The notes: a model not told the origin generated them from the sequence alone. Shown: positions 1,894 to 27,266, numbered from the stretch's first letter. The stretch: 64,000 nucleotides of DNA from Candidatus Omnitrophota bacterium (GCA_022703055.1 JAKLEP010000002.1:160480-224479); one strand, 5' to 3'. A program made the numbers and translations.

Positions 1894-1933
1894 TTCTCAT
1901 TCACCTCTCTTTCTGAAAAATTATATTTCTTGT

Positions 1934-3941
<2,008 letters not shown>

Positions 3942-3942
<1 letters not shown>

Positions 3943-4964: not shown

Positions 4965-5028
4965 TTTACCTCACTTATAGAATAGAATCAGATTATATCA
5001 CAAATCTAATTTTTTGTGCAAGCTTTTT

Positions 5029-5958: not shown

Positions 5959-5967
5959 TTCAATCCT

Positions 5968-8915: not shown

Positions 8916-8946
8916 TGTTTTGAGTTTATATTGATTGAAAGGTGAG

Positions 8947-9495
8947 CTATTTTAAAACTATCTCGACTGCTTCTTTAAGATTCCCGGTGATATAGTCCGG
9001 CTTCTCCTGCCAGTTAGACATGTTTTCCAGCTTCTCTTTCCCGGAAAGAACCAAAATCGTTTTAAAACCAAGCCCTTTCCCCGTCTGGACGTCTCTAATA
9101 CTGTCCCCGATAAAATATGTGGAATTTAAATCTATATTTTTGGCGCCTACGCTTTCTAACGCTTTTTTTATCAGTCCTGCCTTGGGCTTGCGGCAATCAC
9201 AGTTCTCTTGGGCGGTATGGGTGCAATAAAAAACTTCTTTTATCCTGGCTTTATTCTTTGATACTTCTTTGAGCATACGGGAAGTTATGTCTTTTAAGTT
9301 TTCCGCCGGATAGATTCCTTCCGAAACTCCCGCCTGATTGGAAATTACAAAAATATCGAAACCGGAGTCGGTCAACTTCTTTAATGCCTCAAGGCTCCCC
9401 GGCACAAACTTAAATTCACTCCAATGGGTAACGTATTTAAAATCCCCCGGATATTCGTTTATTACGCCGTCTCGATCAAGAAAAATAACTTTCAT
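8947..9495 (-). CDS. gmhB: D-glycero-D-manno-heptose 1,7-bisphosphate phosphatase (HAD-IIIA)
   Basis: FLDRDGVIN HAD motif I, the CTHTAQENCDCRKP zinc-loop motif, GDSIRD motif; 182 aa. Confidence 0.85.
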   Translation of the reverse strand: MKVIFLDRDGVINEYPGDFKYVTHWSEFKFVPGSLEALKKLTDSGFDIFVISNQAGVSEGIYPAENLKDITSRMLKEVSKNKARIKEVFYCTHTAQENCDCRKPKAGLIKKALESVGAKNIDLNSTYFIGDSIRDVQTGKGLGFKTILVLSGKEKLENMSNWQEKPDYITGNLKEAVEIVLK

Positions 9496-10513
9496 TATCT
9501 CTTACCCACTTTATCAATCTTGTGATACCTTCCTCTACATTGACCCTTGTTTTCCAATTCAATGTCTTTTCTAACTTTTTAGTATCGGAAATATAGACCT
9601 TTTGGTCCGATGGCCGCCAATCAGTGAATTTTAGTTTAGGTTTTTTTTCGGTGGCTTTTTCTATCTGTTCAATAAACTCAAGCAGTGAAATAGTATTGTT
9701 ATTGCCTCCGCCGATATTGAAAACTCCATGATTTTTATCAGACTTGATAAACTTCTCGAAAGCATCTATTAAATCGGAGACATAAAGCATGTCCCTTACT
9801 TGTTTTCCGTCTCCGTAGATAGTTATCGGCTTGTTAAAAAGTGCAGCAATGATAAACCAAGCAACCCAGCCCTGGTCTTCGAATCCGAACTGACGCGTTC
9901 CATAAGTGCAGGACATACGAAAAGCCGCAGTTTTCATACCATAGATGTGGCCATATTCCTGCACATAAAGTTCCCCTGTCAGTTTACTGACTCCGTAAGG
10001 AGTATGTCCGGTTAAATCCGTCGGCATATCTTCGGAAACTCCCAAAATATTATCGTAAATGTACCTTTTTTCTTTTTCTTTTAAAGGGATCTTATCGACA
10101 TTCTCGCCGTAGACCTTATTTGTGGAACAATAGATAAAAGCGGCATACTTACAGACTTTCCTTGTGGCTTCCAAAGTATTTAAGGTTCCGAAAGCATTAA
10201 TGCTGAAATCTTCCAAAGGATCTTTTACAGAAGAAGCGACTCCTGGTTGGCCTGCCGTATGAATCACGACATCCACTCCTTTGCCCAAAGCTTTCAAAAC
10301 ATCCTTTTCGTTTCTTACGTCTCCCTTGATTCTTTTTACGTTCTTATATTTAGCCAGATAATTCCAGTTATATTCTACGGATTTTTGGTCATATCCGAAT
10401 ATTTTGGAGCGCATTAAATTGTCTAATATGGTGACGTCATCGCCTTTTGTCGCGAAATGTTCCGCGCAATGAGAACCGACCAACCCGGCTCCGCCAGTGA
10501 TTAAAATCCTCAT
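9476..10513 (-). CDS. NAD-dependent sugar-nucleotide epimerase/dehydratase (extended SDR, CDP-paratose 2-epimerase-like)
   Basis: MRILITGGAGLVGSH Rossmann N-terminus and the YGVSK catalytic Y-x3-K. Start is set at ATG 10513 (GGAGAG 6 nt upstream, ATGA overlap with the upstream stop) rather than the TTG at 10540 used by the track. Confidence 0.75.
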   Translation of the reverse strand: MRILITGGAGLVGSHCAEHFATKGDDVTILDNLMRSKIFGYDQKSVEYNWNYLAKYKNVKRIKGDVRNEKDVLKALGKGVDVVIHTAGQPGVASSVKDPLEDFSINAFGTLNTLEATRKVCKYAAFIYCSTNKVYGENVDKIPLKEKEKRYIYDNILGVSEDMPTDLTGHTPYGVSKLTGELYVQEYGHIYGMKTAAFRMSCTYGTRQFGFEDQGWVAWFIIAALFNKPITIYGDGKQVRDMLYVSDLIDAFEKFIKSDKNHGVFNIGGGNNNTISLLEFIEQIEKATEKKPKLKFTDWRPSDQKVYISDTKKLEKTLNWKTRVNVEEGITRLIKWVRDNESYFS

Positions 10514-11277
10514 TTCTTTCTCTCCCTTTTCATTTGCCAATATTTGGCATAGCTTATTATCTGATATAAACTCGCAAAATAAGCAATCATAAAACCGACG
10601 AATCCGTCTTTGTATGCTCTTTTGCCAAATAGAGATCTGAAAAACCTATCAATTGTCCTCCAGAATGCCTTGCCGAAAGACATCTGGCGGCCAGTATTAA
10701 TCCATTTTTTTGCCTCTAAAGTTGTTTGTCTATTCAGGCTTGCCAGAAAATGTTCGAAATCAGGATAGCCTTTATGGACTATATCTTTGGTCAAGTGTCC
10801 GGTCTCGCCATCTAAAAATACTTTTGGATGGACTTCGACTTCCTCGTAATGAAATTTGCTTTTTTTAAATAAACGCAGCTTACCTGCAGGATACCAGCCT
10901 GAATACCTCACCCAATAATCTCCGATAAAATTTCGCAAAGGTATGGAAAAAGCGCTGAATTTTGTATTGGCTTCCAGTACTTTGGAAATTTCCTGCTTTA
11001 ATTCTTCCGTCACGAACTCGTCGGCGTCCAGGCTTAAGACCCATTCATTTCTGGCCTGGGAATATGACCAATTGCGATGAATGCCTTCAATGTCCATGCG
11101 CCTTTCAAAAATTTTATCGGCGAACTTCTGGGCGATTTCCACTGTCTTATCAGTGCTCATATCATCGACGATGACAATTTCATCGGCCCATCCATGGACA
11201 CTCTGTAAACATTTTTCGATATTATCCTGTTCGTTTTTGGTAATCACCACTACTGACAAAGGTATCTTTTTATCCAT
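10510..11277 (-). CDS. GT2-family glycosyltransferase
   Basis: LSVVVITKNEQDNIEKCL, IVIVDDMSTDKT and LSLDADE (DxD) motifs; 255 aa. Confidence 0.8.
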   Translation of the reverse strand: MDKKIPLSVVVITKNEQDNIEKCLQSVHGWADEIVIVDDMSTDKTVEIAQKFADKIFERRMDIEGIHRNWSYSQARNEWVLSLDADEFVTEELKQEISKVLEANTKFSAFSIPLRNFIGDYWVRYSGWYPAGKLRLFKKSKFHYEEVEVHPKVFLDGETGHLTKDIVHKGYPDFEHFLASLNRQTTLEAKKWINTGRQMSFGKAFWRTIDRFFRSLFGKRAYKDGFVGFMIAYFASLYQIISYAKYWQMKRERKK

Positions 11278-12376
11278 TTAAAACCTTTTTTAACTGTTCT
11301 GAGACAAATTTAATCTGTTTTTTATTCATGTGCGGATACATTGGCAGCGCTATAATCTCCTGGCAGACGCGTTCTGCCACTGGGAAATCTCCCTTTTTGT
11401 AATTCAATTCCTTGTATGCCTCCTGCAAATGTAAAGGCATAGGATAATAAATTGAAACGCCGATTCCTTTTTGGCGCAACTCTTCGTAAATCCTGTCCCG
11501 ATCCTTTATCCTCACAGCATAAATATGATAAACATGCGATGCATCTTTTGCGGATTGAGGCAACGTTATATTTTTCTCATCTTTTAGAAGCTGACTGTAA
11601 TATTTTGCATTTTCCTGCCGTAGTTTATTCCATTTATCTAATTTTGTCAGTTTCGCCCGCAAGATTATCGCCTGAATTGTATCCAGGCGCGAATTATAGC
11701 CTTTTATTGCATGCTCGTATCTACCCTTTCTTCCGCAATCCCTAAGCATGAAAATCTTTTGGTAGATTTTTTCGCTATCTGTAACGACCATTCCCGCATC
11801 GCCGAATGCGCCCAAGTTTTTAGTCGGATAAAAACTGAAACATCCTATATCGGCGAGCGAGCCGCATTGCTTACCTTGATACAAAGCTCCGTGCGCCTGA
11901 GCGGCATCCTCAACTACTTTCAGATTATATTCTTTGGCGATAGCTGAAATCGGCTGCATATCAGCTGATTGTCCAAAAAGATGCACCGGAATTATCGCCT
12001 TGGTGTTTTTAGTGACTGCTTTTCTGATTTTTTCAGGATCGATATTATAGGTTTTATCGTCGATATCGACAAATACCGGTTTTGCGCCGGTATAAGATAC
12101 TGCCAAGGCGGTAGCTATAAAAGTAAAAACCGGAACGATTACCTCGTCACCCTCTTTTATCCCTAAGCTCAAAAGCGAAAGAAACAAAGCGTCAGTCCCG
12201 GAATTAAGTCCAATGGCGTAATTCGTCCCGCAATGGCGGGCAAATTCTGCTTCAAACAGCTTTACGTCCTCGCCAAGTATAAAAGAACTCTTTACGAAGA
12301 GATTCTCTAAGGGTTTCTTGATATCCCTTCTAATCTCCCGATATTGAGCATTCAAATCAACAAAAGGCACATTCAT
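11270..12376 (-). CDS. DegT/DnrJ/EryC1/StrS-family PLP-dependent sugar aminotransferase
   Basis: MNVPFVDLNAQY N-terminus and SFYPTKNLGAFGDAG with the PLP lysine retained. Start is set at Met27 of the track ORF (ATG 12376, ATGA overlap). Confidence 0.85.
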   Translation of the reverse strand: MNVPFVDLNAQYREIRRDIKKPLENLFVKSSFILGEDVKLFEAEFARHCGTNYAIGLNSGTDALFLSLLSLGIKEGDEVIVPVFTFIATALAVSYTGAKPVFVDIDDKTYNIDPEKIRKAVTKNTKAIIPVHLFGQSADMQPISAIAKEYNLKVVEDAAQAHGALYQGKQCGSLADIGCFSFYPTKNLGAFGDAGMVVTDSEKIYQKIFMLRDCGRKGRYEHAIKGYNSRLDTIQAIILRAKLTKLDKWNKLRQENAKYYSQLLKDEKNITLPQSAKDASHVYHIYAVRIKDRDRIYEELRQKGIGVSIYYPMPLHLQEAYKELNYKKGDFPVAERVCQEIIALPMYPHMNKKQIKFVSEQLKKVLNG

Positions 12377-13467
12377 TGTTTTAGCAGCTCCTTGGCTGCG
12401 CCAAAAACCTCTTCTTCTCGGACATCTCGAAGACACTGCTTGTTGTTGTCGCACGGTAATAGCTTAAACCTCTGATAGCAAGGCTGACAAGCCAATCTCG
12501 TTTTTATAACTATGTGATTTTTGCTTCTCGGATAAGGCCCATAAACTTTATCGTCAACCGGGCCAAAAATCGAAACTGTCTTTGCCCCGACGGCGACGGC
12601 CAAATGCAACGGTCCGCCGTCATTGGCGATAACTAATTTAGTCTTCGCTAGTAATGCAGCAAATTGCGCAATGTCAGTTTTGCCGCAGCAGTCAATAGCA
12701 GAATTCTTCGCGCCATCAACTACTTTTAAGCAGGACTCTTTGTCTTTCAAATCTCCCATGACTAAAATTTTAAGTTTTAATTCTTCGGCTAATCTCCTGG
12801 CAACAGCTGCAAATTTCTCCGCCGGCCACTGCTTTATCGAGGCATCCTTGCCCCAGCTTGCACCACCGCCAGGGATTACAGCAACTAAAGTATCTCCAGC
12901 GATTATTCCCTGTTCTGACAAAAAACCATCAGCCCATTTTCTGGCTTCATCCGGAACGAACAAATCCAGATGGCTATCTTTATATTCAATATTTAAGAAT
13001 TTCAATAAATCGAGATAATATTCTACAACATGTTTTGCCTGGTATCCATCAATATTTATTTTATCTGTTAAGAAAACCCCGCGATTTTTATAATTAAAAC
13101 CTATCCTTTTTTTGATGCCGATCAGCCAACTAAAAAAGCTGTAATGTTTGCCCAAAGACAAATCAATCGCAGCATCAAATTTTTCTTTCTTAACTGAATT
13201 CAATAAATTATTGAATTCTTTCAGGCATTTTAATTTTGATTCTTTCCCGAGATCCCGGTAATGATCCTTCTCAAAGACAAAAACCTTGTCTATGTTAGGA
13301 TTAGCTTCTAAAATCTTAACGGTACGGATATTGCAAAGATACCCAATGTAGACATCGGGACGATTTTTCTTGAGATTTCTCACAACCGGCGTGGTAAATA
13401 AAACGTCTCCAATCCCGAAAGGATTGATAACCAACACTCTTTTTAGATTATACTCTCTTGTAGTCAT
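12373..13467 (-). CDS. GT9-family ADP-heptose:LPS heptosyltransferase
   Basis: VLVINPFGIGDVLFTTP N-terminal motif and the C-terminal NDGGPLHLAVAVG motif typical of RfaC/RfaF-like GT9 enzymes. Confidence 0.8.
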   Translation of the reverse strand: MTTREYNLKRVLVINPFGIGDVLFTTPVVRNLKKNRPDVYIGYLCNIRTVKILEANPNIDKVFVFEKDHYRDLGKESKLKCLKEFNNLLNSVKKEKFDAAIDLSLGKHYSFFSWLIGIKKRIGFNYKNRGVFLTDKINIDGYQAKHVVEYYLDLLKFLNIEYKDSHLDLFVPDEARKWADGFLSEQGIIAGDTLVAVIPGGGASWGKDASIKQWPAEKFAAVARRLAEELKLKILVMGDLKDKESCLKVVDGAKNSAIDCCGKTDIAQFAALLAKTKLVIANDGGPLHLAVAVGAKTVSIFGPVDDKVYGPYPRSKNHIVIKTRLACQPCYQRFKLLPCDNNKQCLRDVREEEVFGAAKELLKQ

Positions 13468-14863
13468 CCCTTAATCTTATGATATCATCTTCCTTGAGGT
13501 ATTTTCCTGTCTGGACCTCAACAATCTTCAGAGGCTTATTGCCCGAAGGATTTTCCAGGCGATGAACCTTGCCCGCCGGTATATAAATACTCTCGTTTGA
13601 CCTGACTAATTTAACCATTTTTCCGCAAGTCACCCTGGCAATACCCTCAACGACCACCCAGTGTTCGGCGCGCTTGCGATGAAATTGCAGACTAAGCCTC
13701 TTTTTCGGGTCTATCTCAACCAACTTCACTTTAAAATCAAAATCATATTGCAACACGATATAGCTTCCCCATGGCCGGTTGACTTTCTTATGATAAATAT
13801 ATTCCTCTCTGTTTTTATCCTTTAGGAAGTCGACAATCTTTCTGACTTTCTCGGAGTAATCCTGCTTACAGACCAAAAGCGCATCAGGGGTATCGACTAT
13901 AATCAAGTCCTTTAGACCGAGGGTTGCCACAAACCTATCTTTGCTCCAGACCAGGATATTTTTGCTATCCACGTCGTAAGAGTCGGCCTTAAGGACATTA
14001 TCGTTTTTGTCATTGCCTAAAATATCCTTCAACGCCTGCCAGCTGCCGACATCAGACCAAGCGAATCTGGCCGGTATCATCGAGACCAACTTCGATTTCT
14101 CCAAAATAGCGTAATCAATCGATATAGGAGTAATCTTTTGCCAAATTTTGGTTATATCTTTGTTTGGGTAGACTGAAATTATCTTGCTGTAAAGCGAAGG
14201 AGTATATTTCTTAATCTCGCTTAAGATGACGGATGTTTTCCAAATAAAGATTCCGCTATTCCAAAAATAATTTCTTTGTTTTAAAAATCCTTTGACCTTC
14301 TCCAAGCCTGGCTTTTCAATAAATTTATCAACTAAATAGCCTTTGGATTTTGGACTGATTTTATTTAAGGTTTTAATATATCCATATCCTGTCATGGCTT
14401 TTTGTGGCACGACGCCTAAAGTAACCAAATAACCATCATCTGCCAAGGCACTGGCATCTTTTACAGCATTAATGAATAATTTATTCTTGGATATGATATG
14501 GTCCGACGGAAGAACTATCATACTGCTATTGTGGTCTTTTAAGAAAAGATACCTTGCAGCCAACGCAATTGCCGGAGCGGTGTTCTTGCCGAGCGGTTCC
14601 AGAAAAATATTTTTATCGGGGATGCCAAACTGTTCCAATTCTTTCTTAATCTCAAACAGGTAATGCTGATTAGTGATAACACAGATATTCTTGCTGGGAA
14701 TCAATTTATTTACTCTTAAAATCGTCTGCTCAAGCAGAGTCTTATCGGAGACAACCTTCAGGAACTGTTTTGGCGCAAGCTGCCTGCTTAAAGGCCAGAA
14801 GCGGCTGCCCACACCGCCTGCCAAAATCACCGCATACAAATTATTTTCTTTATTATTTTTCAT
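13448..14863 (-). CDS. manC: Mannose-1-phosphate guanylyltransferase / mannose-6-phosphate isomerase (bifunctional type II PMI-GMP)
   Basis: AVILAGGVGSRFWPLSR nucleotidyltransferase motif and a C-terminal cupin (RPWGSY...HRKRAEHWVVVEG). Start is set at ATG 14863 (AGGAG about 10 nt upstream) rather than the TTG at 14869. Confidence 0.9.
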   Translation of the reverse strand: MKNNKENNLYAVILAGGVGSRFWPLSRQLAPKQFLKVVSDKTLLEQTILRVNKLIPSKNICVITNQHYLFEIKKELEQFGIPDKNIFLEPLGKNTAPAIALAARYLFLKDHNSSMIVLPSDHIISKNKLFINAVKDASALADDGYLVTLGVVPQKAMTGYGYIKTLNKISPKSKGYLVDKFIEKPGLEKVKGFLKQRNYFWNSGIFIWKTSVILSEIKKYTPSLYSKIISVYPNKDITKIWQKITPISIDYAILEKSKLVSMIPARFAWSDVGSWQALKDILGNDKNDNVLKADSYDVDSKNILVWSKDRFVATLGLKDLIIVDTPDALLVCKQDYSEKVRKIVDFLKDKNREEYIYHKKVNRPWGSYIVLQYDFDFKVKLVEIDPKKRLSLQFHRKRAEHWVVVEGIARVTCGKMVKLVRSNESIYIPAGKVHRLENPSGNKPLKIVEVQTGKYLKEDDIIRLRDDYKRV

Positions 14864-15705
14864 CAGCAAATTCTCCTTTTTTGTCTGAATGGGGTTTTAA
14901 ACCTCACTCTAAACCATTTTAATGGAAACCACCAATATCTTTTATTTATACTTTCCCAATCATCATAACTCAACTGATGATTCTTAATGCGATCATTCAT
15001 AACTGCGGGATGAGTCCCAAAATACGCCGGGAACCTGTTGAGATTGCCGAAATCGTAATCTTCGTTCCTTTCCTGTTTATCAAGACTAGTAAATCCTATC
15101 TTTTCGGCATTAACCCGCCTTTGGGTCATTATATCAGAAGGCTGTACCCAGCCATAATGATAAATAAAACATCCTGTTTTTTGTCGGTTCAAAGAAGCCT
15201 TGTCTTTTTTTTCGAATCCGTAGGCGTCACCAATTGACAGGATCTGGCCGTTATTTCTAATAATCCTATCCTGCTTCTGGAACCAGCCGCTGTCGACCCT
15301 ATACCTGTAATAGCTGCCATAAAAATGCAGCCAGGTAAATCTAAAAGCCTCTACCTTGGAATCATTCAAATGCTTCATCATTAGTTTCTTTAAAATCGGT
15401 AAATCTTTTTCGTGTATAACTTCATCACTCTGCAGATAAAAAGCCCAATCGCCTTTGCATTCCGATAAAGCGATATTGGTCTGATGCGACAAAACCAAAG
15501 ATTTTTCCGAAAAATCCCATTTGTTCTGGATTATTTTTATACGCGGATCATTGATAGATTTAATGAGTTCCAAAGTCCTGTCTTCCGAATCTCCGACATT
15601 GACTATGAATTCATCGCAAATCGGCAAGATCGACCGAATTGATTCCAAAATCGGATAATTAAATTTAATCGCGTTTCTGGCGATGGTAAATCCGCTTACC
15701 TTCAT
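14863..15705 (-). CDS. Glycosyltransferase-like protein (GT2-like fold, family uncertain)
   Basis: 280 aa. FTIARNAIKFNYPILESIRSILPICDEFIVNVGDSEDRTLELI resembles proteins usually annotated as family 2 glycosyltransferases. ATGA overlap with the upstream gene. Confidence 0.5.
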   Translation of the reverse strand: MKVSGFTIARNAIKFNYPILESIRSILPICDEFIVNVGDSEDRTLELIKSINDPRIKIIQNKWDFSEKSLVLSHQTNIALSECKGDWAFYLQSDEVIHEKDLPILKKLMMKHLNDSKVEAFRFTWLHFYGSYYRYRVDSGWFQKQDRIIRNNGQILSIGDAYGFEKKDKASLNRQKTGCFIYHYGWVQPSDIMTQRRVNAEKIGFTSLDKQERNEDYDFGNLNRFPAYFGTHPAVMNDRIKNHQLSYDDWESINKRYWWFPLKWFRVRFKTPFRQKRRIC

Positions 15706-16819: not shown

Positions 16820-17587
16820 TTAGTCTAATCCAGTCAGGCTAACAGTGACCAAGCCGCCTGCGGTAACAATTTTAATTAAAAACGGGGTCTTGTCCTTATT
16901 ATTGAAAAACCAGATTGTCAGGCGGCTTTTATGCCGCGGGCTTTTATCCGCGCGCTTGACTTCCGCTGTTACTATCCAATACCCAACTTTACCGTTGCCC
17001 AAAACCAATTCTTTATAATCTGAGACCTTGGCTATCATGATATAATTCTTCTGGTTCGTGTTGATATGGGTCTGGATTTCTTTGCCGACTTGGAATTCCT
17101 GGCTGCGCAAATAGAATATCGCGGAAATCGGATCGCGGGTATCTTCAAAAATCACTCTCTGGACGTCGCCGGTATTCATTATCTTTTGCTTATGATCGTA
17201 AACGAGCTCTCTGTTGTAATTGTATGTGCCGGGCGTTTTGACTTGCTGGATGAATTTTAAAGGGCACAAGGTCTTACTATCGACGAATGAATCGGCCTGC
17301 ATCTGGGCGTTGAAAATCTTGGAGAAATAATCCATTGTTTTAGCCGTCGCCCTGAAATGGAGCACGCTTTTTCTATCAAGCCTGTCTGTGCCGAGATCCT
17401 CGATTTTCGCCGTTGCCGCCGGAAGTATCCCGAGAAATTTTATTTTCATAGACAGAGATTTACTGTCTAGATTTTTATTGTTAAAGTTTTTAATTAGCAA
17501 GCTCGGACTATCTTTAATGATCTCTCTTAAAATTAACAAAGCCAAAATTATTAATAAAGTTACGAAAACTATCTTCATAATCCTCAT
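16820..17587 (-). CDS. DUF3108-like secreted/periplasmic protein
   Basis: N-terminal signal/anchor MRIMKIVFVTLLIILALLIL. The beta-rich body has a pattern recalled from DUF3108 proteins (tentative). Confidence 0.4.
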   Translation of the reverse strand: MRIMKIVFVTLLIILALLILREIIKDSPSLLIKNFNNKNLDSKSLSMKIKFLGILPAATAKIEDLGTDRLDRKSVLHFRATAKTMDYFSKIFNAQMQADSFVDSKTLCPLKFIQQVKTPGTYNYNRELVYDHKQKIMNTGDVQRVIFEDTRDPISAIFYLRSQEFQVGKEIQTHINTNQKNYIMIAKVSDYKELVLGNGKVGYWIVTAEVKRADKSPRHKSRLTIWFFNNKDKTPFLIKIVTAGGLVTVSLTGLD

Positions 17588-19365
17588 TTTGCCCCTCCTT
17601 CGGTTATCACTGGCTTTACTGGAGTTGCGACAACTTCGTATACTTCAATATCATCAAGATTCTTAATAAACTTAAGCCCTTTATTTCGCCTTATTTTGTC
17701 AAGTTCGACTTTTTCGCTCAATAAATTTGTTTCTTTATAGGGATTTGTGTGCACAAGCACATATTTTACCCCCATCCATTTAAGGATACCTGCAGTATCT
17801 GGCATCGAAAGCTTGTCTATCAACTGCGCCAACTCGTTTGCACGGGTACCAGGGATGGTGGCGTTTATAATCTTTTTTTGATGTATCGTCTGATGAAATT
17901 TATACATTTCATTTTGGCCGTTGGCATCCAAGGGATACTCTGCGATTATGTAATCTTTGGGCTCATTTTTTAACCAATCATAAATTTGTGGATGCACAGT
18001 AAGATCAATTACCTTAAAAGGAGGAAAATTTAGAAATTCAAAAAGAAGCAATCCTGAAAACAAACAAGTAGCCAAGATTTTAGATAGGTTGGTCTTAAAT
18101 TTCTTCAATACAATCTTAAGTCCAAAGCCAGCCAAAACCGATACTGCGAGCATTACGAGTAATCCAAATCTTGCATAAGCCCTGATCATCGGCAGAACTT
18201 TATAAATAAAAAATGACGGTAGATAGATCTTAATTGATCCGAATTTCCACCAAGGCGGCTGAGAAAACAGCCACGAAACTATAACTAATAATAGAAAATA
18301 TCCGATAAAGAATTTTTCTTCCTGATTTGATGAGTTTTTATTTCTTCTTCTCCAGAAACGAAATGCCAAAAAAGCAAATATAATAGTAGTCCAACCTAAA
18401 TAAAGTGCATGTTCAGTAAAGCTCACGCCATAAAGAAAATCACCTACGAAGTATTCTGTAAATTTACCAAAAATAGGATGCTGAGCTGAAGGCAAAAAGT
18501 AACTTAATGGCTTTGCCGACTGAGAAAATAAATCTTCGAATGGCCGGCGATAAGGATTAAAACCTGAAGCGATGCTGGAAGCAGAAAATCTTAAAGCATT
18601 CTTTATAAAAGGGAAATATTGGGGCAGCAATATCACAAACGCTAAAAGCAGTATAACTACCACTCTCTTAAAATATTTTATATCCTCTTTAAACAAACTT
18701 GGTTTTTTAAATAATTTTGTCCTCCAATTAAATAAAATTAAGTAAACCATGAAAATAATAAAAACATAGAATCCAAACAACATAATATGCAGGTCGAATG
18801 AAAATAATATTAAAATGCTGCAAAGAAATAAAACAGCCGTGGCCTTAGAAAACTTATCTTTTAGCAGGATAGCGCTTAATAAACACAAGGGAATCCATTC
18901 ATTAAGGGTTAAAGTTGGATGCTGCCATAGGCGGGCAAACTGATAAGGGCAAAAAGCAAAAGCTACGCCGCTAAATACGCCTGAGAAAATGTTTTTGGTA
19001 AGATAAAAAACAAGCATGTAGACAACTATTCCGCTTAGAAATATATTAAAAAGCAAGATTAAATTGTAAGCAATCAAAGGTGATGTGGCGATACTTAAAA
19101 TAGACATTAAAAACACATAGATATAAGGCGAATAGCCAGTAGAAAATAAATCTACTCCGGATGGATAGCCGATTAAAGTCGTATGGAGTATCGGAAGATG
19201 ATTATGAAAAGAATAATTGAGCATCCAAAACTGCCAAATGCTTCCATAAGGCTCGTCGGTAAACTGAAAACCGGGGATATGCGAATTAATTTTAAAGACG
19301 AGCGGAAAGGTCATAGCTACGGTCAAAATCGCAAAAATCAAGAAAATGAATAAATGTTTTTTCAT
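17584..19365 (-). CDS. Polytopic membrane protein, possible GT-C-type glycosyltransferase or glycan polymerase
   Basis: 593 aa with more than 10 hydrophobic segments followed by a soluble C-terminal domain. It sits inside the glycan cluster. No diagnostic motif was recognised. Confidence 0.4.
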   Translation of the reverse strand: MKKHLFIFLIFAILTVAMTFPLVFKINSHIPGFQFTDEPYGSIWQFWMLNYSFHNHLPILHTTLIGYPSGVDLFSTGYSPYIYVFLMSILSIATSPLIAYNLILLFNIFLSGIVVYMLVFYLTKNIFSGVFSGVAFAFCPYQFARLWQHPTLTLNEWIPLCLLSAILLKDKFSKATAVLFLCSILILFSFDLHIMLFGFYVFIIFMVYLILFNWRTKLFKKPSLFKEDIKYFKRVVVILLLAFVILLPQYFPFIKNALRFSASSIASGFNPYRRPFEDLFSQSAKPLSYFLPSAQHPIFGKFTEYFVGDFLYGVSFTEHALYLGWTTIIFAFLAFRFWRRRNKNSSNQEEKFFIGYFLLLVIVSWLFSQPPWWKFGSIKIYLPSFFIYKVLPMIRAYARFGLLVMLAVSVLAGFGLKIVLKKFKTNLSKILATCLFSGLLLFEFLNFPPFKVIDLTVHPQIYDWLKNEPKDYIIAEYPLDANGQNEMYKFHQTIHQKKIINATIPGTRANELAQLIDKLSMPDTAGILKWMGVKYVLVHTNPYKETNLLSEKVELDKIRRNKGLKFIKNLDDIEVYEVVATPVKPVITEGGAK

Positions 19366-19384: not shown

Positions 19385-20557
19385 TTATGCGCTTTTTGTC
19401 AATGCCTCATCAAAAATCTTTTCCCAGCTGATGTCCGAAGCATACCTTATAGCATTTTCTCTGTATTTATAATATAATTCACCGTCGGACGTTAATTTGG
19501 TAACGGCTCTTACAAGTTCTTCCTTGTTATAGTTTATAGCAACCCCCATCGGTATTCTTTCGATCTCTTCTGCTATCCAAGGGACTCGCGTAATTATTAC
19601 TGGCAGCCCGCAGGCTAAATATTGTTTTGGCTTTCCGGGATCGGTATACCAGGTAAAACTGTCTGAATGCGGCTCGTATAATGACATGCCAACTCCACAA
19701 GTTGCCAGAGCATTTTCAACATCTTCGTGACTATCAATATAGCCCTTAAATTCAACCTGAGGCTCCAAGCTTAACTCTCTTACTTTGTTTTTAAGATACT
19801 GCTCTAGCTCTCCTGTACCAATAATAATCAATTTGATGTTCGAATTATTTGCGATTATTACCGGCAAGGAATCTATCAATAGCTCTAATCCCTGCCCCTT
19901 CCTCAGATGACCCATATAAACCAAACGATTCCTATCAATCTGGCCGGCTTCCGGCCTGTTTATCCTTTCAAAACGCACTCCTATAGGCACTACAATTTGG
20001 TTGTCAGTTCTCTTAAGCCCTTCTTTTTGCCTCGCTATGATCATCCTTGCCGATAAATTCCACACTTTATCAGAATGCTTGGCACAAAACCTATCAATCG
20101 CATGATAAATCCAGTTTAACAGTCGATTGTCAAACCGATTAGGCACATAATCAATAGTATAAAATACAACTTTTTTTACTTTACCTATTGTCCTTAATAC
20201 TATTCCTGAAAATGCATTCAACGGGTCTGCCCCTACAAACAAATCAAATTTATCAGGGCACCTAACAGTCCAACAAATAGTATAGAAAATATCCTTAAAA
20301 TACATTAAGATTGACGGCAATTCCCAATTGAAAGCTTTCCTCTTCTCGATATTTCCACTGTTATATATGTTAAAGAATGATCTTGTATCTTGAGCATAGG
20401 AAAATGGATGGCCGATAAAAAGCAAAAAATCCACTTTGTCCTTTAGATATTCCTCAAGCTCCTGGGCAGGGCCGGTAGCAAACACATGGGTGACTATCGC
20501 TACCCTATTAAATTTACTGTCGATATTTGTTTTTATACCACTCAATGGTTTTTGCAA
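19385..20557 (-). CDS. GT4-like glycosyltransferase
   Basis: 390 aa with a GT-B-like C-terminal half (LVYMGHLRKGQGLELL...GLPVIITRV). The start codon is TTG and uncertain; a second in-frame TTG lies at 20545. Confidence 0.6.
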   Translation of the reverse strand: MQKPLSGIKTNIDSKFNRVAIVTHVFATGPAQELEEYLKDKVDFLLFIGHPFSYAQDTRSFFNIYNSGNIEKRKAFNWELPSILMYFKDIFYTICWTVRCPDKFDLFVGADPLNAFSGIVLRTIGKVKKVVFYTIDYVPNRFDNRLLNWIYHAIDRFCAKHSDKVWNLSARMIIARQKEGLKRTDNQIVVPIGVRFERINRPEAGQIDRNRLVYMGHLRKGQGLELLIDSLPVIIANNSNIKLIIIGTGELEQYLKNKVRELSLEPQVEFKGYIDSHEDVENALATCGVGMSLYEPHSDSFTWYTDPGKPKQYLACGLPVIITRVPWIAEEIERIPMGVAINYNKEELVRAVTKLTSDGELYYKYRENAIRYASDISWEKIFDEALTKSA

Positions 20558-21455
20558 TCCCTTCTTGTAAATTTGTTTTTGCCTTCCATCCTAACTTCTT
20601 ACTCAAGCTCGAATCCATTAATTTGCGAGGCATACCGTCGGGAAAAGAAGAATTCCAAGTGATCTTTCCCCCAAAACCGGTCTTTTCTTTAACAATTTCA
20701 GCTAACTGCTTGATAGATACATCGCTACCCGAGCCGATGTTTAAGAATTCAGGTAAATCCTTGGCATCGTATTTTTCCATAAAATAAACGCAGGCATCCG
20801 CCAGATCTTCTACGAACAAAAACTCTCTTCTAGCCTTGCCTGTACCCCATAGTTCTATATACTTAGAATTGGAATTTTTTGCCTCAACGAATTTCCTAAT
20901 CAAACTTGATATAACATGTGAAGCCTTTGGATCAAAATTATCATTTGGTCCATAGAGGTTCGGCGGAACTAACGAGATAAAATTGGTATTATATTGCTTG
21001 TTGTAATAACTGCACAATTTTAATCCTGCGATTTTTGCGATGGCATAGCCTTCGTTAGTCGGCTCTAATTTGCCGCTTAAAAGATATTCTTCTTTCATCG
21101 GCTGGCGACACTGCCGAGGATATATACAAGAACTGCCAAGATAGAGCAATTTCTTAACCCCATGCTTATAGCTTGCATTTATAACATTCGCCTCTATCAT
21201 CAAATTATCGTATAAAAACTCTGCCGGATTTTCTATGTTAGCCTTTATGCCTCCTACTCTGGCGGCAAAATGAAAGACATATTCCGGCCTCTCTTTAGCC
21301 ATAAATTCATCTACCAATTTCTGATTGTGCAGATCGAATTCTTCAATGGTCTTAAGGATTAGATTGTTATATCCTTTCTCTCTGAGCAAATTAACCACAG
21401 ATGTCCCGACCATCCCCGTGTGGCCTGAAACATATATTCTAGCTTTTTTATCCAT
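20514..21455 (-). CDS. fcl: GDP-L-fucose synthase-family epimerase/reductase (Fcl/WcaG; could equally be a ColC-type GDP-L-colitose synthase)
   Basis: RIYVSGHTGMVGTSVVNLL N-terminus, SSCIYP, YAIAKIAG (Y-x3-K); 313 aa. It lies immediately downstream of gmd and a 3-dehydrase-like gene. Confidence 0.8.
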   Translation of the reverse strand: MDKKARIYVSGHTGMVGTSVVNLLREKGYNNLILKTIEEFDLHNQKLVDEFMAKERPEYVFHFAARVGGIKANIENPAEFLYDNLMIEANVINASYKHGVKKLLYLGSSCIYPRQCRQPMKEEYLLSGKLEPTNEGYAIAKIAGLKLCSYYNKQYNTNFISLVPPNLYGPNDNFDPKASHVISSLIRKFVEAKNSNSKYIELWGTGKARREFLFVEDLADACVYFMEKYDAKDLPEFLNIGSGSDVSIKQLAEIVKEKTGFGGKITWNSSFPDGMPRKLMDSSLSKKLGWKAKTNLQEGIAKTIEWYKNKYRQ

Positions 21456-22689
21456 TTTTTCGCTCCATTATTTCTTCAAAAGCCCGAACTATATATTCCA
21501 AATCTTCCGTTTTAAGATACTGATGGGCCCCTATATAAAATCCATTCTCGCCGACAAATTCGGCGTTTGGCAGCTTGCCTTTATAAATTTTCTTGAGGTG
21601 GGAGTAAGCCGGCTGCTGCAGAGGAACGCATCCAAAAAGCGGCCTTGTCTCTACGCCTCTTTTCTCCAATTCCATCCTTAATGCTTTACGGCAGATAACT
21701 CTCGGTTTCCTAATTACCAACGGATATGCCAGATAGCTTACGCAGGAAGAATAATCGGGCAGCTGTAATATTCCGGAATATTTAGAAAGTTTTTCATTCA
21801 AATACTTAACGATCCTCTGGCGCTTGCTTATTATGTCATTAATCTTGCCTAATTGTGCCAGGGCTATAGCAGCTTGAAATTCCATTGTTTTAAAATTATA
21901 ACCTATTAAATCATGCAAAAACCGCGGATCAAAATCATCTGCCTTGCCATCATGGTATTTAAGATAGGGGCATATTCCTTTGCTTCGGGTGCATATTCTA
22001 CATTCGCATAACCTGCCATTAGTTTTGATTTTCTTTGAGAGGCGGTAAATATCGTAATGATTGGTAACGATTGCCCCCATTTCCCCCGCTTGGATATTAT
22101 GGGCGATGTAAAAGGAAAAAACACCTGCATCTGCCGCGGCACCGCATTTCTTGCCGCGATAAACTGACCCGTGAGCCTCCGAAGCATCATCCAAAACAAT
22201 CAAATTATATTTCTTGGCGATTGATTTTATCTTGTCTATCTGGACGGAAAAGCCCATTAAATCAACGGGAAGAATAATACTGTATTTGTTTTTATCTTTG
22301 GCTTTTATTAGGTGTCTTTCTACGGCCTCTGGGCTAATGCCAAAAGTAAAAGGATCTATATCTACGAATACCGGCTCAAATCCAGCTAGAACAATAGCGT
22401 GAATTACAGAGATATAAGTTAACGGCGAGGTAATAATCTTAGGCCGATTTTCTAATTTGTACAAATATTTTAGCGCGGTTAAAACAGTAATCAGGGCTGC
22501 TGTCCCGGAGCTGGTGGCAACACAATACTTTGCACCGATAAAATCCGCCCATTTCTTTTCAAATTCATAGGTTTTAGCGCCTTCTGTTATCCTCCCGGAA
22601 TCCAGTACCTCCAGCACATTCTTTCTTTCCTCAGGACCTATTTCCAGCCATCCCACAGATATTCTTCTCATATTTTTATTTCTTTTCAT
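21448..22689 (-). CDS. PMP/PLP-dependent sugar 3-dehydratase-like enzyme (E1/RfbH/ColD type) of the DegT family
   Basis: DegT-fold protein whose cofactor Lys position is His (SFYIAHNIQAGEMG, against SFYPTKNLGAFGDAG in the 11270..12376 paralog). It also carries a Cys cluster, GRLCECRICTRSKGIC, resembling the GRDCYCAPGCDNTC [2Fe-2S] motif of E1/RfbH. Start is set at ATG 22689 (TGATG overlap with the gmd stop). Confidence 0.65.
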   Translation of the reverse strand: MKRNKNMRRISVGWLEIGPEERKNVLEVLDSGRITEGAKTYEFEKKWADFIGAKYCVATSSGTAALITVLTALKYLYKLENRPKIITSPLTYISVIHAIVLAGFEPVFVDIDPFTFGISPEAVERHLIKAKDKNKYSIILPVDLMGFSVQIDKIKSIAKKYNLIVLDDASEAHGSVYRGKKCGAAADAGVFSFYIAHNIQAGEMGAIVTNHYDIYRLSKKIKTNGRLCECRICTRSKGICPYLKYHDGKADDFDPRFLHDLIGYNFKTMEFQAAIALAQLGKINDIISKRQRIVKYLNEKLSKYSGILQLPDYSSCVSYLAYPLVIRKPRVICRKALRMELEKRGVETRPLFGCVPLQQPAYSHLKKIYKGKLPNAEFVGENGFYIGAHQYLKTEDLEYIVRAFEEIMERKNG

Positions 22690-23732
22690 CAATCAACACT
22701 CCACCATTTCCTTGGAAATTTTTCTTTTAACATCTTGTCTCCTTCGCCGATCGGCTTAAGCCCTGCCGCGCGCATGTCTGCATCCACCATTATTTTAACC
22801 AGGTCGCTGAATTTGACTTTGGGTTGCCAGCCAAATGTCTTTTTAGCTTTGCTTGTATCCGCAATCAATTCTCCGACTTCAGTAGGACGAAAATATCTCG
22901 GGTCAATCTTTACGAATTTCTTGGAATCTAGGCCTGCGTAGGAAAACGCCTCATCAACAAATGCCTTCACCGAATGAGATTCTCCCGTGCCAAGCACAAA
23001 ATCATCCGGCTTGCCCTGCTGGAGGATTTGCCACATTGCTTCTACATATTCCGGAGCATAGCCCCAGTCTCTTTTTGCCTCCAAATTTCCCAAATAAAGA
23101 TAATCCTGTTTTTTAGCTAGGATTGCAGCGATCGCGCGTGTTATTTTACGGGTAACAAAAGTCTCGCCGCGCCTGGGAGATTCGTGATTAAATAATATTC
23201 CATTTGATGCAAATATCTTGTATCCTTCCCTGTAATTTTTTATCATCCAATAACCATAAACTTTAGCGCAGGCATAGGGGCTTCTCGGCTGGAATGGAGT
23301 ATTTTCATTTTGCGGCGGCTTGGACGAACCAAACATTTCGCTCGATGATGCCTGGTAAAATTTGATGTTGCTTGCGCTTCTTTTGATAGCTTCAAGGATT
23401 CTGGTCGCGCCTAAGGCGGTAATATTTCCGGTATATTCGGGGATATCAAAGCTAACTCTTACGTGGGACTGCGCTCCTAGATGATAAATCTCGTCCGGCT
23501 TGATATTATAAACTATATTGGAAACCTGTTCGGAATCGGAAAGGTCGCCGTAATGAAGAAAAAGTTTTGCTCCTGATTTATGGGGATCGATATAAATGTG
23601 GTTAATCCTCGCGGTATTGAAAGTGCTGGCTCGCCTGATAATCCCATGGACTTCATATCCTTTTGACAAAAGAAACTCTGCCAGATATGAACCATCCTGC
23701 CCAGTTATGCCGGTAATTAATGCTTTATTCAT
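22689..23732 (-). CDS. gmd: GDP-mannose 4,6-dehydratase
   Basis: [34 protein letters not shown] is the canonical Gmd N-terminus; YACAKVY catalytic motif; 347 aa. Confidence 0.95.
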
Positions 23733-23733
23733 C

Positions 23734-24555
23734 TTATCTTTTCTCCTTTAAGAAAATAATTCCGACTTTGATTCTCAAAAAATACATACTTAATGCCAAT
23801 ATCGGATGCATCAGAAGTCTTTTCCACTTTCCCTTTTCCAAGAAGACTCCGAAATACCTATAACCAAAGCCTAATTGCTTCTTTATAATAGGATCTTTTT
23901 TGCCCCATTTTTCTGCGTACCGCCTAAATGAGATGGCATAATATTCTTTTTTATCTAAATATCGTTTTAAGTTAAACCCTGATTCATTATGAAACAAAAT
24001 AGAATTTGTGATTCCTGTTTTGCCTGCCCTGTTTATTCTCCTGTCAAAATCCCAATCTTCCGGGCCGTTTAGGGTCTCGTCAAATCCGCCGATCTCAAGA
24101 AATTTGTCCCTTCTTCCGAATCTAACGGCATCAATACAGGTCGCATTGTAGAAACTGCGCTCAAAATCCCTTACCCTTATCCAAAAACCTTCACCCCTGA
24201 TCTTCTCTGGTATATACAAAGCGATGAAGCCCCCATTTTGACAAAGCGAAACCGATTCCTTAATCAAATCGCGGGACAAAATCATATCCGCATCAAGATA
24301 AAGCACGTATTCTCCTTTTGCCTCTTTCATGCCAAGATTTCTTTGCGCAGCGCGTTCAGGACCAAAATTGTAGACTTTATCGGTGAATCTTTTAGCTATC
24401 TCTTTGGTTTTATCAGCAGAATTATTATCGACGATGATTAACTCAATATTGTCTCGAGGATAAGTTTGGATTTCAATACTCTGGATACAATTCAGGATAT
24501 TCTTTTCTTCGTTTCTTGTAGTTATTATTACAGAAACACTGGGAAAACTAGCCAT
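23734..24555 (-). CDS. GT2-family glycosyltransferase
   Basis: [31 protein letters not shown] motifs. Start is set at Met22 of the track ORF (ATG 24555, GGAGG about 9 nt upstream, just after the upstream stop). Confidence 0.8.
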
Positions 24556-24557
24556 TT

Positions 24558-25796
24558 TTATGCCTCCGCCCAAGAGATTCTCATAAATATAAGAAATAAC
24601 GTTGCTGAAGATACGCATAAAACAATCAGAACCGCTGCCAGCGTTGAATGGAATAATAAAATCGCTAAAGTCTGCAAAACAGTTGCTAAGATCAAGAATT
24701 TAATGAACTTAAAATTGTTTACGGAAAGTAGATAAAAAGACACTACATTAACGATCCCGAATAAACTCATGGCAACAGAAAACAACCTGCCAAGCAAAAC
24801 CGAAGCAGGATTTGACTTACCTGTTATCAACCCCAATAAGTTTGCAGGAAATAAATTATAAACCGATATACACGCAAAACATAATAACGCCGAGAAAAGC
24901 AAAGCTTTATTTAATACATGGTGATGTTGTTTTTCCTCTGCTAAAAGATTCGCCGCCCTGGGAAACAAAACCAAGGCTATCGGGCTGGGGATAAAAAATA
25001 AAATCTTACCGATAAACTGAGCTATGGCATAGTTTCCCGCATCCTGGGGGCTGAAAAAGTGCTTCACTAACACCATATCGATATTGGTAAGCGCCATCAT
25101 AGTCAGCATAAATAACATAGACGGTATGAAATAACAGTACATTTCCTTTATTTCCTTGACTTCGACCTGAACTCTGTCTTTCATTGCAATAATAACTTCT
25201 CTTATCGGAAGAACATACAGCATAATACCAAGCAATAATGAGATCATAAAACCGACTAAACCACCGATGATATTCAAGCCTGCCTTTACAAAAATAAATG
25301 TGAAAATAATCTTAATCAGCCCAGAAATAATGCTTATAGTGCCTTCCCAATAGAATTTCTCCATCCCTTGGAGAAATCCCGAAAGAACCGGATAAATGGC
25401 GCTCAAAAACAGTATCGAGGCTAAATAATTTATATATATGTCGGATCCGATATTCAGAAAATATGCGATCTTTTCTCTCAACAACAAAACCAATCCAACA
25501 ATAATCAGCCCGATAAAAAGATTATGCTTCAAGAAAATAAAAAACAGGCTGGATATTTTATTAATCTTTTCGCGTATATTAAAGGCTGAAATGAATTTTA
25601 TCACCATCGTCCGGAATGCCGCTATAGGCATTGCTATAATCAAAAGCAAAGATATTAAAGAAGATAAAATCCCATATTCAATTTCAGTCAGGTTACGAAC
25701 TAATACCAATTGGTATATAAGATTGGTTAGGCTGGAAAAGCTTGCTGCGAAAAACATAAAAATGGCGTTTTTTGAGAATTTATCGTTTAAGTTCAT
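24558..25796 (-). CDS. Wzx-like polysaccharide/oligosaccharide flippase (MOP superfamily)
   Basis: 412 aa and about 12 hydrophobic helices. The N-terminus KNAIFMFFAASFSSLTNLIYQLVLVRNL is typical of flippases. Located in the glycan cluster. Confidence 0.65.
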   Translation of the reverse strand: MNLNDKFSKNAIFMFFAASFSSLTNLIYQLVLVRNLTEIEYGILSSLISLLLIIAMPIAAFRTMVIKFISAFNIREKINKISSLFFIFLKHNLFIGLIIVGLVLLLREKIAYFLNIGSDIYINYLASILFLSAIYPVLSGFLQGMEKFYWEGTISIISGLIKIIFTFIFVKAGLNIIGGLVGFMISLLLGIMLYVLPIREVIIAMKDRVQVEVKEIKEMYCYFIPSMLFMLTMMALTNIDMVLVKHFFSPQDAGNYAIAQFIGKILFFIPSPIALVLFPRAANLLAEEKQHHHVLNKALLFSALLCFACISVYNLFPANLLGLITGKSNPASVLLGRLFSVAMSLFGIVNVVSFYLLSVNNFKFIKFLILATVLQTLAILLFHSTLAAVLIVLCVSSATLFLIFMRISWAEA

Positions 25797-25802
25797 AGCT
25801 AT

Positions 25803-27266
25803 TTAACTCGTTTTAGCTTTAGAGCTAAAATCAAAAATATGACCCAAAACCTTAAAACCTGCCCTAAAGAAATAGCTCAGGTCGTGAAAATCCCTTATTG
25901 AGGTAAAACGATTCAGTAAAAATTCCGGATTGAATGCTATCTTATAAATCTCCTGAACTAAATTCATAAGTTTTTCTTCGGAGAAATTCACGCTCATAAT
26001 AGGCTCTTTCATGTCGTATCGATCCCAATCTAAAGTCTTAAGCCACCCATTTCGCTTACATTCATCAAAAAGTCTTGAGCCAGGATAAGGAATCACGATC
26101 GTTGCCTGCATGGTATAGGCATAGCCTTTCTTAAGAAGTGATTTGCCTAAATTTAAAGTATTTAGCGCATCGCTATAATCTTCCCAGGGATAACCAAACA
26201 TGATTGTGATATGCGGGAATAATCCTTCTTCTCTGGCAAGCTTACAAGATTCAATTATTTGCTCGGTAGTCAAATTCTTGTTGATCCTATCAAGAGTTTT
26301 TTGATTTGCCGACTCAAGGCCAAAAAGAAGCAGGCGAAAACCCGCCTGCTTCATCAGCCGATAATCTTCCTTGGTTAAAGCGCCAAAACGCATATTGCAA
26401 TCGATAGACACCTTTTTATTATAGCCTCGCTCAATCATGCCTTTGCAAAAATTCCTTAGCCACTCGCCTACCGGGAATGTCCCTGTGTCGTCCATAATCT
26501 CTTTGACCGAATATTGGCTTATCAATTTACCGATTTCGTCCAACACGTTTTCAACACTGCGAACCCTAAACGACGGATACAAAGTCGGCCAGGAACAAAA
26601 TGTGCATTTGGCCCACCAGCAATCCCTTCCGGACATAATGTAGGTTCCGGGCAATCTTCTATAATTGCCGTTTTTATAGGCATAGGTTTTCCACTTAGTC
26701 AGATCCCTGTCGATAAAAGGCAAAGAATCTAGATCATGATTTAATTTAAACTCTCCGCTGTTTTTGACCTGCCCCTTATCGCGGTACCAAATCCCCGGCT
26801 CAAATTCTTTGCGATTATTCTCCAGGTTGTCGCACAGATTCGCTAAAAGAAAATCATAATCTCCGCCACAAAGCACAAAATCTACCTTAGAATTATTAAA
26901 AGATTCCTCTGGCAAGGCTGTTACATGATCGCCGAACAAAACGCACTTTATTTTTGGCCTTATTGACTTTAATTGGTCAATAATACTCCAATGCTGTTTT
27001 ACAACCGGCGTTTTTGTTTCAAAAGCAATTAGATCAGGGTTATTCTTGATTATAAAATTGAGGAAGTCGCCCCAATTCATACCTTCGGATATGCAATCAT
27101 TCCATAGGACTTCATGGCCTTGGCTTTTAAGCAAAGTGGCTGCCTGGGCAGGAACAACAGGATAAATATAGGTCGGCTCTTTAAAATACTGAAATTGCCT
27201 GTTTTGACCTAAAGTAGGATGCCCTTTATCTGTCTTTAAAGGCGGGTAAGATATAATTACCTTCAA
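25803..27266 (-). CDS. B12-binding-domain radical SAM enzyme
   Basis: N-terminal cobalamin-binding-like Rossmann region, then GRDCWWAKCTFCSWP...FRVRSVENVLDEI at the radical SAM core position; 487 aa. The start codon is TTG. Confidence 0.7.
   Translation of the reverse strand: MKVIISYPPLKTDKGHPTLGQNRQFQYFKEPTYIYPVVPAQAATLLKSQGHEVLWNDCISEGMNWGDFLNFIIKNNPDLIAFETKTPVVKQHWSIIDQLKSIRPKIKCVLFGDHVTALPEESFNNSKVDFVLCGGDYDFLLANLCDNLENNRKEFEPGIWYRDKGQVKNSGEFKLNHDLDSLPFIDRDLTKWKTYAYKNGNYRRLPGTYIMSGRDCWWAKCTFCSWPTLYPSFRVRSVENVLDEIGKLISQYSVKEIMDDTGTFPVGEWLRNFCKGMIERGYNKKVSIDCNMRFGALTKEDYRLMKQAGFRLLLFGLESANQKTLDRINKNLTTEQIIESCKLAREEGLFPHITIMFGYPWEDYSDALNTLNLGKSLLKKGYAYTMQATIVIPYPGSRLFDECKRNGWLKTLDWDRYDMKEPIMSVNFSEEKLMNLVQEIYKIAFNPEFLLNRFTSIRDFHDLSYFFRAGFKVLGHIFDFSSKAKTS

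Follow-up and report, generated by a model that had tools for sequence, protein, structure and literature searches.

Examination of a 64,000-nucleotide stretch of DNA from a Candidatus Omnitrophota bacterium (hereafter the window, with positions counted from its first letter) revealed on the minus strand a run of three genes (20514..23732) consisting of gmd, a gene for an enzyme of the DegT fold and a gene of the fcl family. Together with manC, these three coupled genes probably form a module for a sugar linked to guanosine diphosphate (GDP). Judged by its sequence, the middle enzyme is a member of a third lineage of DegT-fold proteins that carry a histidine in place of the cofactor-binding lysine, separate from both E1/RfbH and ColD. 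It is probably a GDP-4-keto-6-deoxymannose 3-dehydrase, and we lean towards an iron-sulfur cluster as what its loop of four cysteines would bind. The complete reading, in which such a cluster-bearing dehydrase would feed an Fcl-like enzyme leading to GDP-colitose or an isomer of it, is given a probability of about one half. The lineage is large, old and present in both bacteria and archaea; the lineage, the cysteine motif and the GDP setting are undescribed, while the enzyme class and its chemistry are familiar.

The calls of JGI and NCBI agree on the three open reading frames (ORFs). The first, gmd (22689..23732, 347 amino acids), encodes a GDP-mannose 4,6-dehydratase which passes the equivalog cut-off of TIGR01472 (507.6 bits against 415) and matches PF16363 at 1.6e-138. 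The second (21448..22689) encodes a His-type sugar 3-dehydrase-like enzyme of 413 amino acids (PF01041, 2.7e-81) when read from the ATG at 22689 used in both sets of public calls; an alternative TTG start lies at 22692. The third (20514..21455, 313 amino acids) encodes an epimerase/4-reductase of the Fcl family, predicted to act in a ColC-like role. Its best match is the GDP-L-fucose synthase model NF047922, at 431.5 bits (2e-129) and under the cut-off of 500; it is 45% identical to Fcl of Escherichia coli and keeps all of the catalytic residues C109, H179, Y136 and K140, His179 of Fcl being the SHV histidine of the alignment. Translational coupling, proposed in the initial annotation, is borne out by the coordinates: the TGA stop of gmd shares 1 nucleotide with the ATG of the middle gene (TGATG, 22691-22687), and the stop of the middle gene overlaps the ATG of the fcl-family gene by 8 nucleotides (ATGGATAA, 21455-21448). 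The gene identities given there for gmd and the fcl-family gene, the order typical of colitose synthesis and the presence of manC in the same cluster also hold, as does the pathway logic. The bifunctional mannose-1-phosphate guanylyltransferase/mannose-6-phosphate isomerase ManC (13448..14869, minus strand) scores 526 bits against TIGR01479 (cut-off 373), has the Pfam domains NTP_transferase, ManC_GMP_beta-helix and MannoseP_isomer, and is the sole sugar nucleotidyltransferase found in the window. Gmd was the one 4,6-dehydratase of the window found to pass a curated cut-off. A Candidatus Omnitrophica metagenome-assembled genome encodes a protein 100% identical to the middle one, and the gene order of the window was matched on three independent contigs.

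The active site of the middle enzyme resembles that of a 3-dehydrase. His197 (codon 22099..22101, within SFYIAHNIQAG at 22084..22116, minus strand) stands in place of the cofactor lysine and is aligned with His220 of E1, with His188 of ColD and with the lysine of the Lys-type aminotransferase encoded in the window (11270..12376, motif FSFYPTKNLGA), in agreement with the substitution first noticed in the initial annotation. This histidine and all four cysteines of the loop are invariant in 79 of 79 full-length relatives, and the SSGT, Asp168 and Ser192 residues of the pyridoxal 5'-phosphate (PLP) or pyridoxamine 5'-phosphate (PMP) site are likewise invariant. The cysteines form the motif Cys228-x-Cys230-x2-Cys233-x6-Cys240 (21970..22008, minus strand; translation CECRICTRSKGIC), a putative metal or iron-sulfur site. 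Residues 219-248, in which they lie, constitute an insertion of about 25-30 residues relative to Lys-type aminotransferases, where the loop is absent. The HMMER alignment with perosamine synthase breaks at exactly these residues, whereas the alignment with E1 is continuous and ungapped and places GRLCEC on GRDCYC, so that Cys228 and Cys230 correspond to C251 and C253 of E1. The cysteine cluster thus coincides in position with the iron-sulfur loop of E1, as had been claimed. Cys240 falls on C261 of E1 only with gaps (L-INS-i alignment), and Cys233 has no counterpart in E1. We take the ligands of the [2Fe-2S] cluster of E1 to be C193-x57-C251-x-C253-x7-C261, and these cysteine positions fit the E1 sequence rebuilt from the match in the Protein Data Bank (PDB). 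The loop of ColD is of similar length and free of cysteine (HGWTRNLPKKNKVTGVKSDDQFEES), a difference that had been rightly pointed out. A further cysteine described as 45 residues upstream of the cluster, on the other hand, had to be dropped as a ligand candidate: Cys182 is in reality 46 residues upstream, occurs in 7 of 79 relatives and is also found in the ordinary aminotransferase.

The placement of the enzyme outside the two best-known His-type groups rests on models and on a tree. The RfbH model NF011936 is its best NCBIfam match, at 223.2 bits and under the cut-off of 423. Among PDB entries the best match is E1 (3bcx; 173 bits, 6.7e-50, 29% identity), with GDP-perosamine synthase at 163 bits, ColD at 130 bits and 9wvy, deposited as a 'putative NDP-4-keto-6-deoxyglucose-3-dehydratase', at 109 bits. 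A Foldseek search against the PDB did not discriminate among Per, ArnB, E1 and ColD (all about 1e-27, with Per at the top). In a neighbour-joining distance tree of 353 columns, from which the loop and histidine columns had been taken out, the middle protein lay outside the clade descending from the last common ancestor of E1 and ColD in 99 of 100 bootstraps, and so does not group within ColD, a possibility that the initial annotation had singled out for checking by phylogeny. In direct comparison ColD reached 144 bits (27% identity) and a representative of the ColD clade 270 bits. The description of the enzyme as E1/RfbH-like therefore stands for the histidine and the position of the cysteine loop, and fails for membership in the family, given the score, the tree and the lack of an equivalent of C193.

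A pattern scan over one genome per GTDB species found relatives of the window type in 414 species representatives, and the details of the family given here come from the 80 best loci (31 archaeal and 49 bacterial as judged by record titles, designated by L numbers where needed). The bacterial loci belong to Omnitrophota, Scalindua/Brocadiales (anammox Planctomycetes), Patescibacteria, Chloroflexota, Elusimicrobia and Clostridia; the archaeal ones to methanogens, including the cultured Methanobrevibacter cuticularis DSM 11139, and to Methanoperedens, Bathyarchaeia, Asgard and DPANN archaea. We take all of these lineages to be anaerobic, which is consistent with an oxygen-sensitive cofactor. A search of 1.84 billion representatives of clusters at 50% identity allowed loop types to be counted over the top 150 matches together with six reference sequences: 42 had the histidine and a four-cysteine loop, 10 the histidine and a three-cysteine loop with the spacing of E1, 32 the histidine and a loop free of cysteine (the ColD clade included) and 34 the histidine without any loop, and 30 were of the Lys type. 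A cysteine-less sister clade is 41-48% identical to the window protein. Public annotation labels the family 'DegT/DnrJ/EryC1/StrS family aminotransferase', and JGI labels some relatives CDP-6-deoxy-D-xylo-4-hexulose-3-dehydrase (CDP, cytidine diphosphate) or dTDP-sugar transaminase (dTDP, deoxythymidine diphosphate).

The neighbourhoods of these relatives point to GDP-linked sugars. A Gmd-like gene, defined by at least 45% identity to the Gmd of the window, is present somewhere in the fetched stretch of 32 of the 80 loci and directly upstream in 22 of the 70 loci with enough flank for positions to be counted; an Fcl-family gene lies directly downstream in 21 of the same 70. Matches to TIGR01472 at 1e-50 or below were obtained for 23 of 50 upstream ORFs of at least 280 amino acids, and no CDP-glucose 4,6-dehydratase (TIGR02622, same threshold) was found among the upstream neighbours of relatives. 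The exact triplet of gmd, enzyme and fcl is shared by 11 loci, bacterial as well as archaeal. Moreover, a canonical RfbH accompanies the window-type enzyme in five loci (L003, L006, L048, L031 and L034), which argues for a separate, GDP-linked role of the latter. In L003, L031 and L034, rfbF adjoins the canonical RfbH, and the window-type enzyme stands in a gmd/fcl setting. The clearest of these is L003, from a PVC-group bacterium, where positions 1820-9159 hold rfbF (TIGR02623, 430 bits), a short-chain dehydrogenase/reductase (SDR), rfbG (TIGR02622, 499 bits) and RfbH (712 bits; motifs SFYPAH and GRDCWCDPGKDDTC), followed by gmd, a window-type enzyme 64% identical to that of the window and an fcl-like gene. 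A single operon-like run thus holds two systems for 3-deoxygenation. Such a pairing of 3-dehydrase paralogs, in which each adjoins a 4,6-dehydratase of its own, argues for a role of the window type in the GDP branch.

The cysteine-less sister clade follows an SDR of the GDP_Man_Dehyd type, with genes of the GDP-heptose pathway alongside on one contig. Members of this clade were also observed on phage-like contigs bearing Portal_Mu or another phage portal and a ClpP-type protease (L086, 6001-7863; L087, 4363-6225; L088, 6001-8277). One form bears a fused methyltransferase at its N-terminus, and another is split by an intein that contains a LAGLIDADG domain. In L088 the gene is accompanied by genes for NTP_transferase, GHMP kinase, SIS and HAD proteins, as would be expected of GDP-heptose synthesis.

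A 2022 review recognises three characterised 3-dehydratases: E1 (CDP-linked, with an iron-sulfur cluster and the E3 reductase), ColD (GDP-linked, without a cluster, its PMP being regenerated from glutamate) and SpnQ (dTDP-linked, with an iron-sulfur cluster). According to this review, E1 and SpnQ have a four-cysteine [2Fe-2S] motif and ColD has none. The window protein shares with E1/RfbH/AscC/DdhC of Yersinia and Salmonella (3bcx) the DegT fold, the histidine for lysine and a GRxCxC motif, and both have an insertion of about 30 residues bearing cysteines after the GR motif. It differs in failing the RfbH cut-off, in lying outside the E1 and ColD clade, in lacking C193 and in having all four cysteines within the loop as CxCx2Cx6C, and the genes near it are gmd, fcl and manC, whereas the partners of E1 are rfbF, rfbG and E3, none of which was found in the 64 kb. 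With ColD/WbdK (2gms) it shares the histidine, the predicted substrate GDP-4-keto-6-deoxymannose and the pathway partners ManC, Gmd and an Fcl-family gene in the position of ColC; the two belong to separate clades and differ in the cysteines of the loop. SpnQ, the dTDP-4-keto-2,6-dideoxyglucose 3-dehydratase of the forosamine pathway of spinosyn, could be compared by its description; it resembles the reading proposed here in having an iron-sulfur cluster and no dedicated E3, and differs in being dTDP-linked and part of an actinomycete natural-product pathway. Finally, GDP-perosamine synthase Per (3bn1, 3dr4), the top Foldseek and a near-top sequence match (29% identity), acts on GDP-4-keto-6-deoxymannose, and it keeps the lysine, has no loop and is an aminotransferase rather than a dehydrase. 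Searches of the literature found no GDP-linked iron-sulfur or cysteine-loop 3-dehydrase described. The initial annotation had spoken of a hybrid or undescribed route; 'undescribed' fits this result, while 'hybrid' is misleading for an enzyme of a third lineage.

In the pathway that we propose, the first two steps rest on matches to curated models: ManC would provide GDP-mannose, which Gmd would convert to GDP-4-keto-6-deoxy-D-mannose. The later steps draw on conserved residues, on homology and on the gene context, from which we infer the nucleotide of the substrate, the 3-deoxygenation itself, the metal cofactor, the source of the electrons and the product's stereochemistry. The middle enzyme would form a PMP ketimine with the sugar, from which His197, as the general base, would take the C4' proton so that the hydroxyl at C3 leaves. 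The resulting sugar-ene intermediate would be reduced via the iron-sulfur cluster of the loop, as in E1 and SpnQ, giving GDP-4-keto-3,6-dideoxy-D-mannose. The Fcl-family enzyme would then epimerise C5 and reduce C4, as suggested by the conserved Cys/His epimerisation pair and Tyr/Lys reductase residues, to yield GDP-L-colitose (3-deoxy-L-fucose) or a stereoisomer, which the neighbouring glycosyltransferases and a flippase would place in a surface glycan.

Electrons for this reduction may come from a general low-potential ferredoxin or flavodoxin instead of a dedicated E3. A Pfam check of the 49 minus-strand ORFs of at least 150 amino acids in the window found no E3/AscD-type protein (Fer2/FAD_binding_6/NAD_binding_1), and neither a glucose-1-phosphate cytidylyltransferase nor a CDP-glucose 4,6-dehydratase was found among these ORFs, as had been reported before. 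The description of an SDR as CDP-paratose-epimerase-like found no confirmation; the gene at 9476..10540 encodes a generic extended SDR whose best model score is 163 bits against a cut-off of 365. The ferredoxin motif CxxCxxCxxxCP had no match in the window and a single one across the 80 loci, which had no conserved gene for a redox partner. In L003, the size of an ORF that lies just ahead of the canonical RfbH genes made it a candidate for E3; it was rejected, as it encodes a glycosyltransferase. The initial annotation had pointed to the missing E3. Its absence from the window is no paradox and no argument against a redox enzyme, since SpnQ relies on reductase systems of the general ferredoxin or flavodoxin kind in place of a dedicated E3 (2022 review) and since the candidate upstream of RfbH in L003 is no E3 either.

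Several observations weigh against an iron-sulfur cluster in the loop. The remote ligand C193 of E1 is replaced by alanine or serine in the window-type family, and the spacing of the loop is CxCx2Cx6C as opposed to CxCx3Cx3C in E1, so that the argument from homology to E1, as read from these alignments, covers two and at most three ligand positions. A model built with AlphaFold2 from a 12-sequence alignment is confident on the fold (mean predicted local distance difference test score, pLDDT, 78), but falls below 50 over residues 225-264 and gives no geometry for the cysteines. The bias of the family towards anaerobes may come from phylogeny or horizontal transfer and not from the chemistry of the cofactor. 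Short-loop motifs of four cysteines often bind zinc, and the four invariant cysteines could equally well do so here. In this main rival reading, the same pathway and product would be reached without redox chemistry, as in ColD, by an enzyme using PLP and L-glutamate and hydrolysing an enamine, and the Cys4 loop would hold a structural zinc or serve as a structural element independent of oxygen. The similar-length, cysteine-less loops of ColD and of the sister clade indicate that the catalytic core can work without cysteines, and all biochemically characterised GDP-linked C3-dehydratases work in the ColD manner, including the GDP-heptose C3-dehydratases of Campylobacter, which are PLP- and glutamate-dependent ColD orthologs (2022 review; 2023 study of the Campylobacter enzymes). 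We nevertheless consider such a mechanism unlikely, because the first two cysteines fall exactly on ligands of E1 within the shared GRxCxC, the four cysteines are invariant across bacteria and archaea in a protein outside the ColD clade, and the carriers belong to lineages that we presume to be anaerobic.

Other observations weigh against the assignment of substrate and product. About 60% of the related loci have no gmd within 7 kb, and some, such as those of Scalindua, show other contexts; the substrate range may differ within the lineage. The third protein is so similar to Fcl (431 bits, with all catalytic residues) that gmd and fcl alone could yield GDP-L-fucose, leaving the middle enzyme to another branch, in which it would act on a different 4-keto sugar such as a GDP-6-deoxy-4-keto-heptose or a dTDP sugar, or would turn the same intermediate into a side product. 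The tie of the sister clade to GDP-heptose genes, together with the GmhB-like phosphatase and heptosyltransferase genes of the window, would suit this arrangement, which is slightly less probable than a ColD-like mechanism: the middle gene lies between gmd and fcl with stop/start overlaps, the order recurs in 11 loci of two domains, no second 4,6-dehydratase of the window passes a curated cut-off, and the Fcl score remains under 500. CDP-glucose genes were found near the triplet or near-triplet of L002, L003, L034 and L056, and L031 repeats the arrangement of L034. Since L002 and L056 have rfbF and a CDP-dehydratase-like gene close to the triplet while the fetched stretch shows no canonical RfbH, since E1 gives the best match in both the PDB and NCBIfam and since JGI gives a CDP-enzyme label to some relatives, a divergent E1/RfbH acting on CDP-4-keto-6-deoxyglucose, with the CDP-glucose genes and E3 elsewhere in the genome, was also considered. 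It is improbable in view of the RfbH score, the 99 of 100 bootstraps and the lack of CDP genes among those found in the 64 kb window, and a redundant second E1 would be unlikely in the five loci that already hold a canonical RfbH (with rfbF beside it in three). An ordinary or degenerate sugar aminotransferase, making for example GDP-perosamine, would fit the DegT fold and the presence of GDP-perosamine synthase among the top sequence and fold matches, and SpnQ itself has an aminotransferase side activity (2022 review). This is very improbable, since the Schiff-base lysine is histidine in all 79 relatives, a substitution that marks the characterised 3-dehydratases, the H220K mutant of E1 shows that this residue sets the type of reaction (2022 review), and the window already has a Lys-type aminotransferase.

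The genes around the module are all on the same strand and include several glycosyltransferases, a Wzx-type flippase, two nucleotide-sugar dehydrogenases, the Lys-type aminotransferase and a heptosyltransferase. A GT1/GT4-type glycosyltransferase (19385..20557, Glycos_transf_1), whose gene overlaps the fcl-like gene at its start, is a candidate transferase for the product sugar and has a 62%-identical ortholog at the matching position in L001. Directly upstream of gmd lies a GT2 glycosyltransferase gene (23734..24618, Glycos_transf_2), whose orthologs (62-68% identity) adjoin the enzyme in L001, L010 and L042, followed by the flippase gene (24558..25796, Polysacc_synt). A gene for a B12-binding radical SAM protein (25803..27266), 2 kb upstream of gmd, has an HpnJ-like model as its best NCBIfam match (162 bits, far under the cut-off); in 21 of 80 loci a relative is encoded no more than 7 kb from the window-type dehydrase, with close orthologs (58-68% identity) in seven loci, and the protein may be a class-B radical SAM methylase for the sugar or glycan. 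The module is followed by genes for a 593-amino acid DUF6311 membrane protein (17584..19365), which has relatives in six related loci and may be a glycan polymerase or transferase, and for a DUF3108 protein (16820..17587). A GmhB-like heptose bisphosphate phosphatase (8947..9495; 165.8 bits, just below the cut-off of 178) and a heptosyltransferase II-like protein (12373..13467; 135.9 bits against 134.6) give this part of the cluster a resemblance to lipopolysaccharide-core synthesis. Farther away, an ORF of 2863 amino acids (50905..59496) resembles polymorphic toxins or adhesins, with numerous repeats of the bacterial cadherin-like and Ig kinds and a pretoxin-HINT domain at the C-terminus, and 2944..4964 holds two tandem overlapping paralogs similar to galactose-1-phosphate uridylyltransferase (DUF4921/DUF4931) beside GAPDH and a GH57 enzyme. 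All of these genes are on the minus strand.

If the proposed reading is correct, the enzyme would add a fourth combination, GDP-linked and with a cluster, to those of E1, ColD and SpnQ. It would assign a function to a family labelled 'DegT family aminotransferase', or mislabelled as a CDP enzyme, in hundreds of uncultured anaerobes and in methanogens, and it predicts surface glycans with 3,6-dideoxyhexoses such as colitose in Omnitrophota, anammox bacteria, methanogens and organisms of the DPANN or the candidate phyla radiation (CPR). As a broader and tentative picture, to which we give less than even odds, the window enzyme would represent an ancient third lineage in anaerobic bacteria and archaea, CPR and DPANN included, which deoxygenates GDP-4-keto-6-deoxy sugars with a four-cysteine cluster in a single loop, possibly [4Fe-4S], and with ferredoxin-type donors; cluster-dependent deoxygenation would then be ancestral, and ColD, E1 and several cysteine-less clades, one of them apparently phage-borne, would be derived. 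The family bears on the order in which cluster-dependent and cluster-free deoxygenation of sugars arose.

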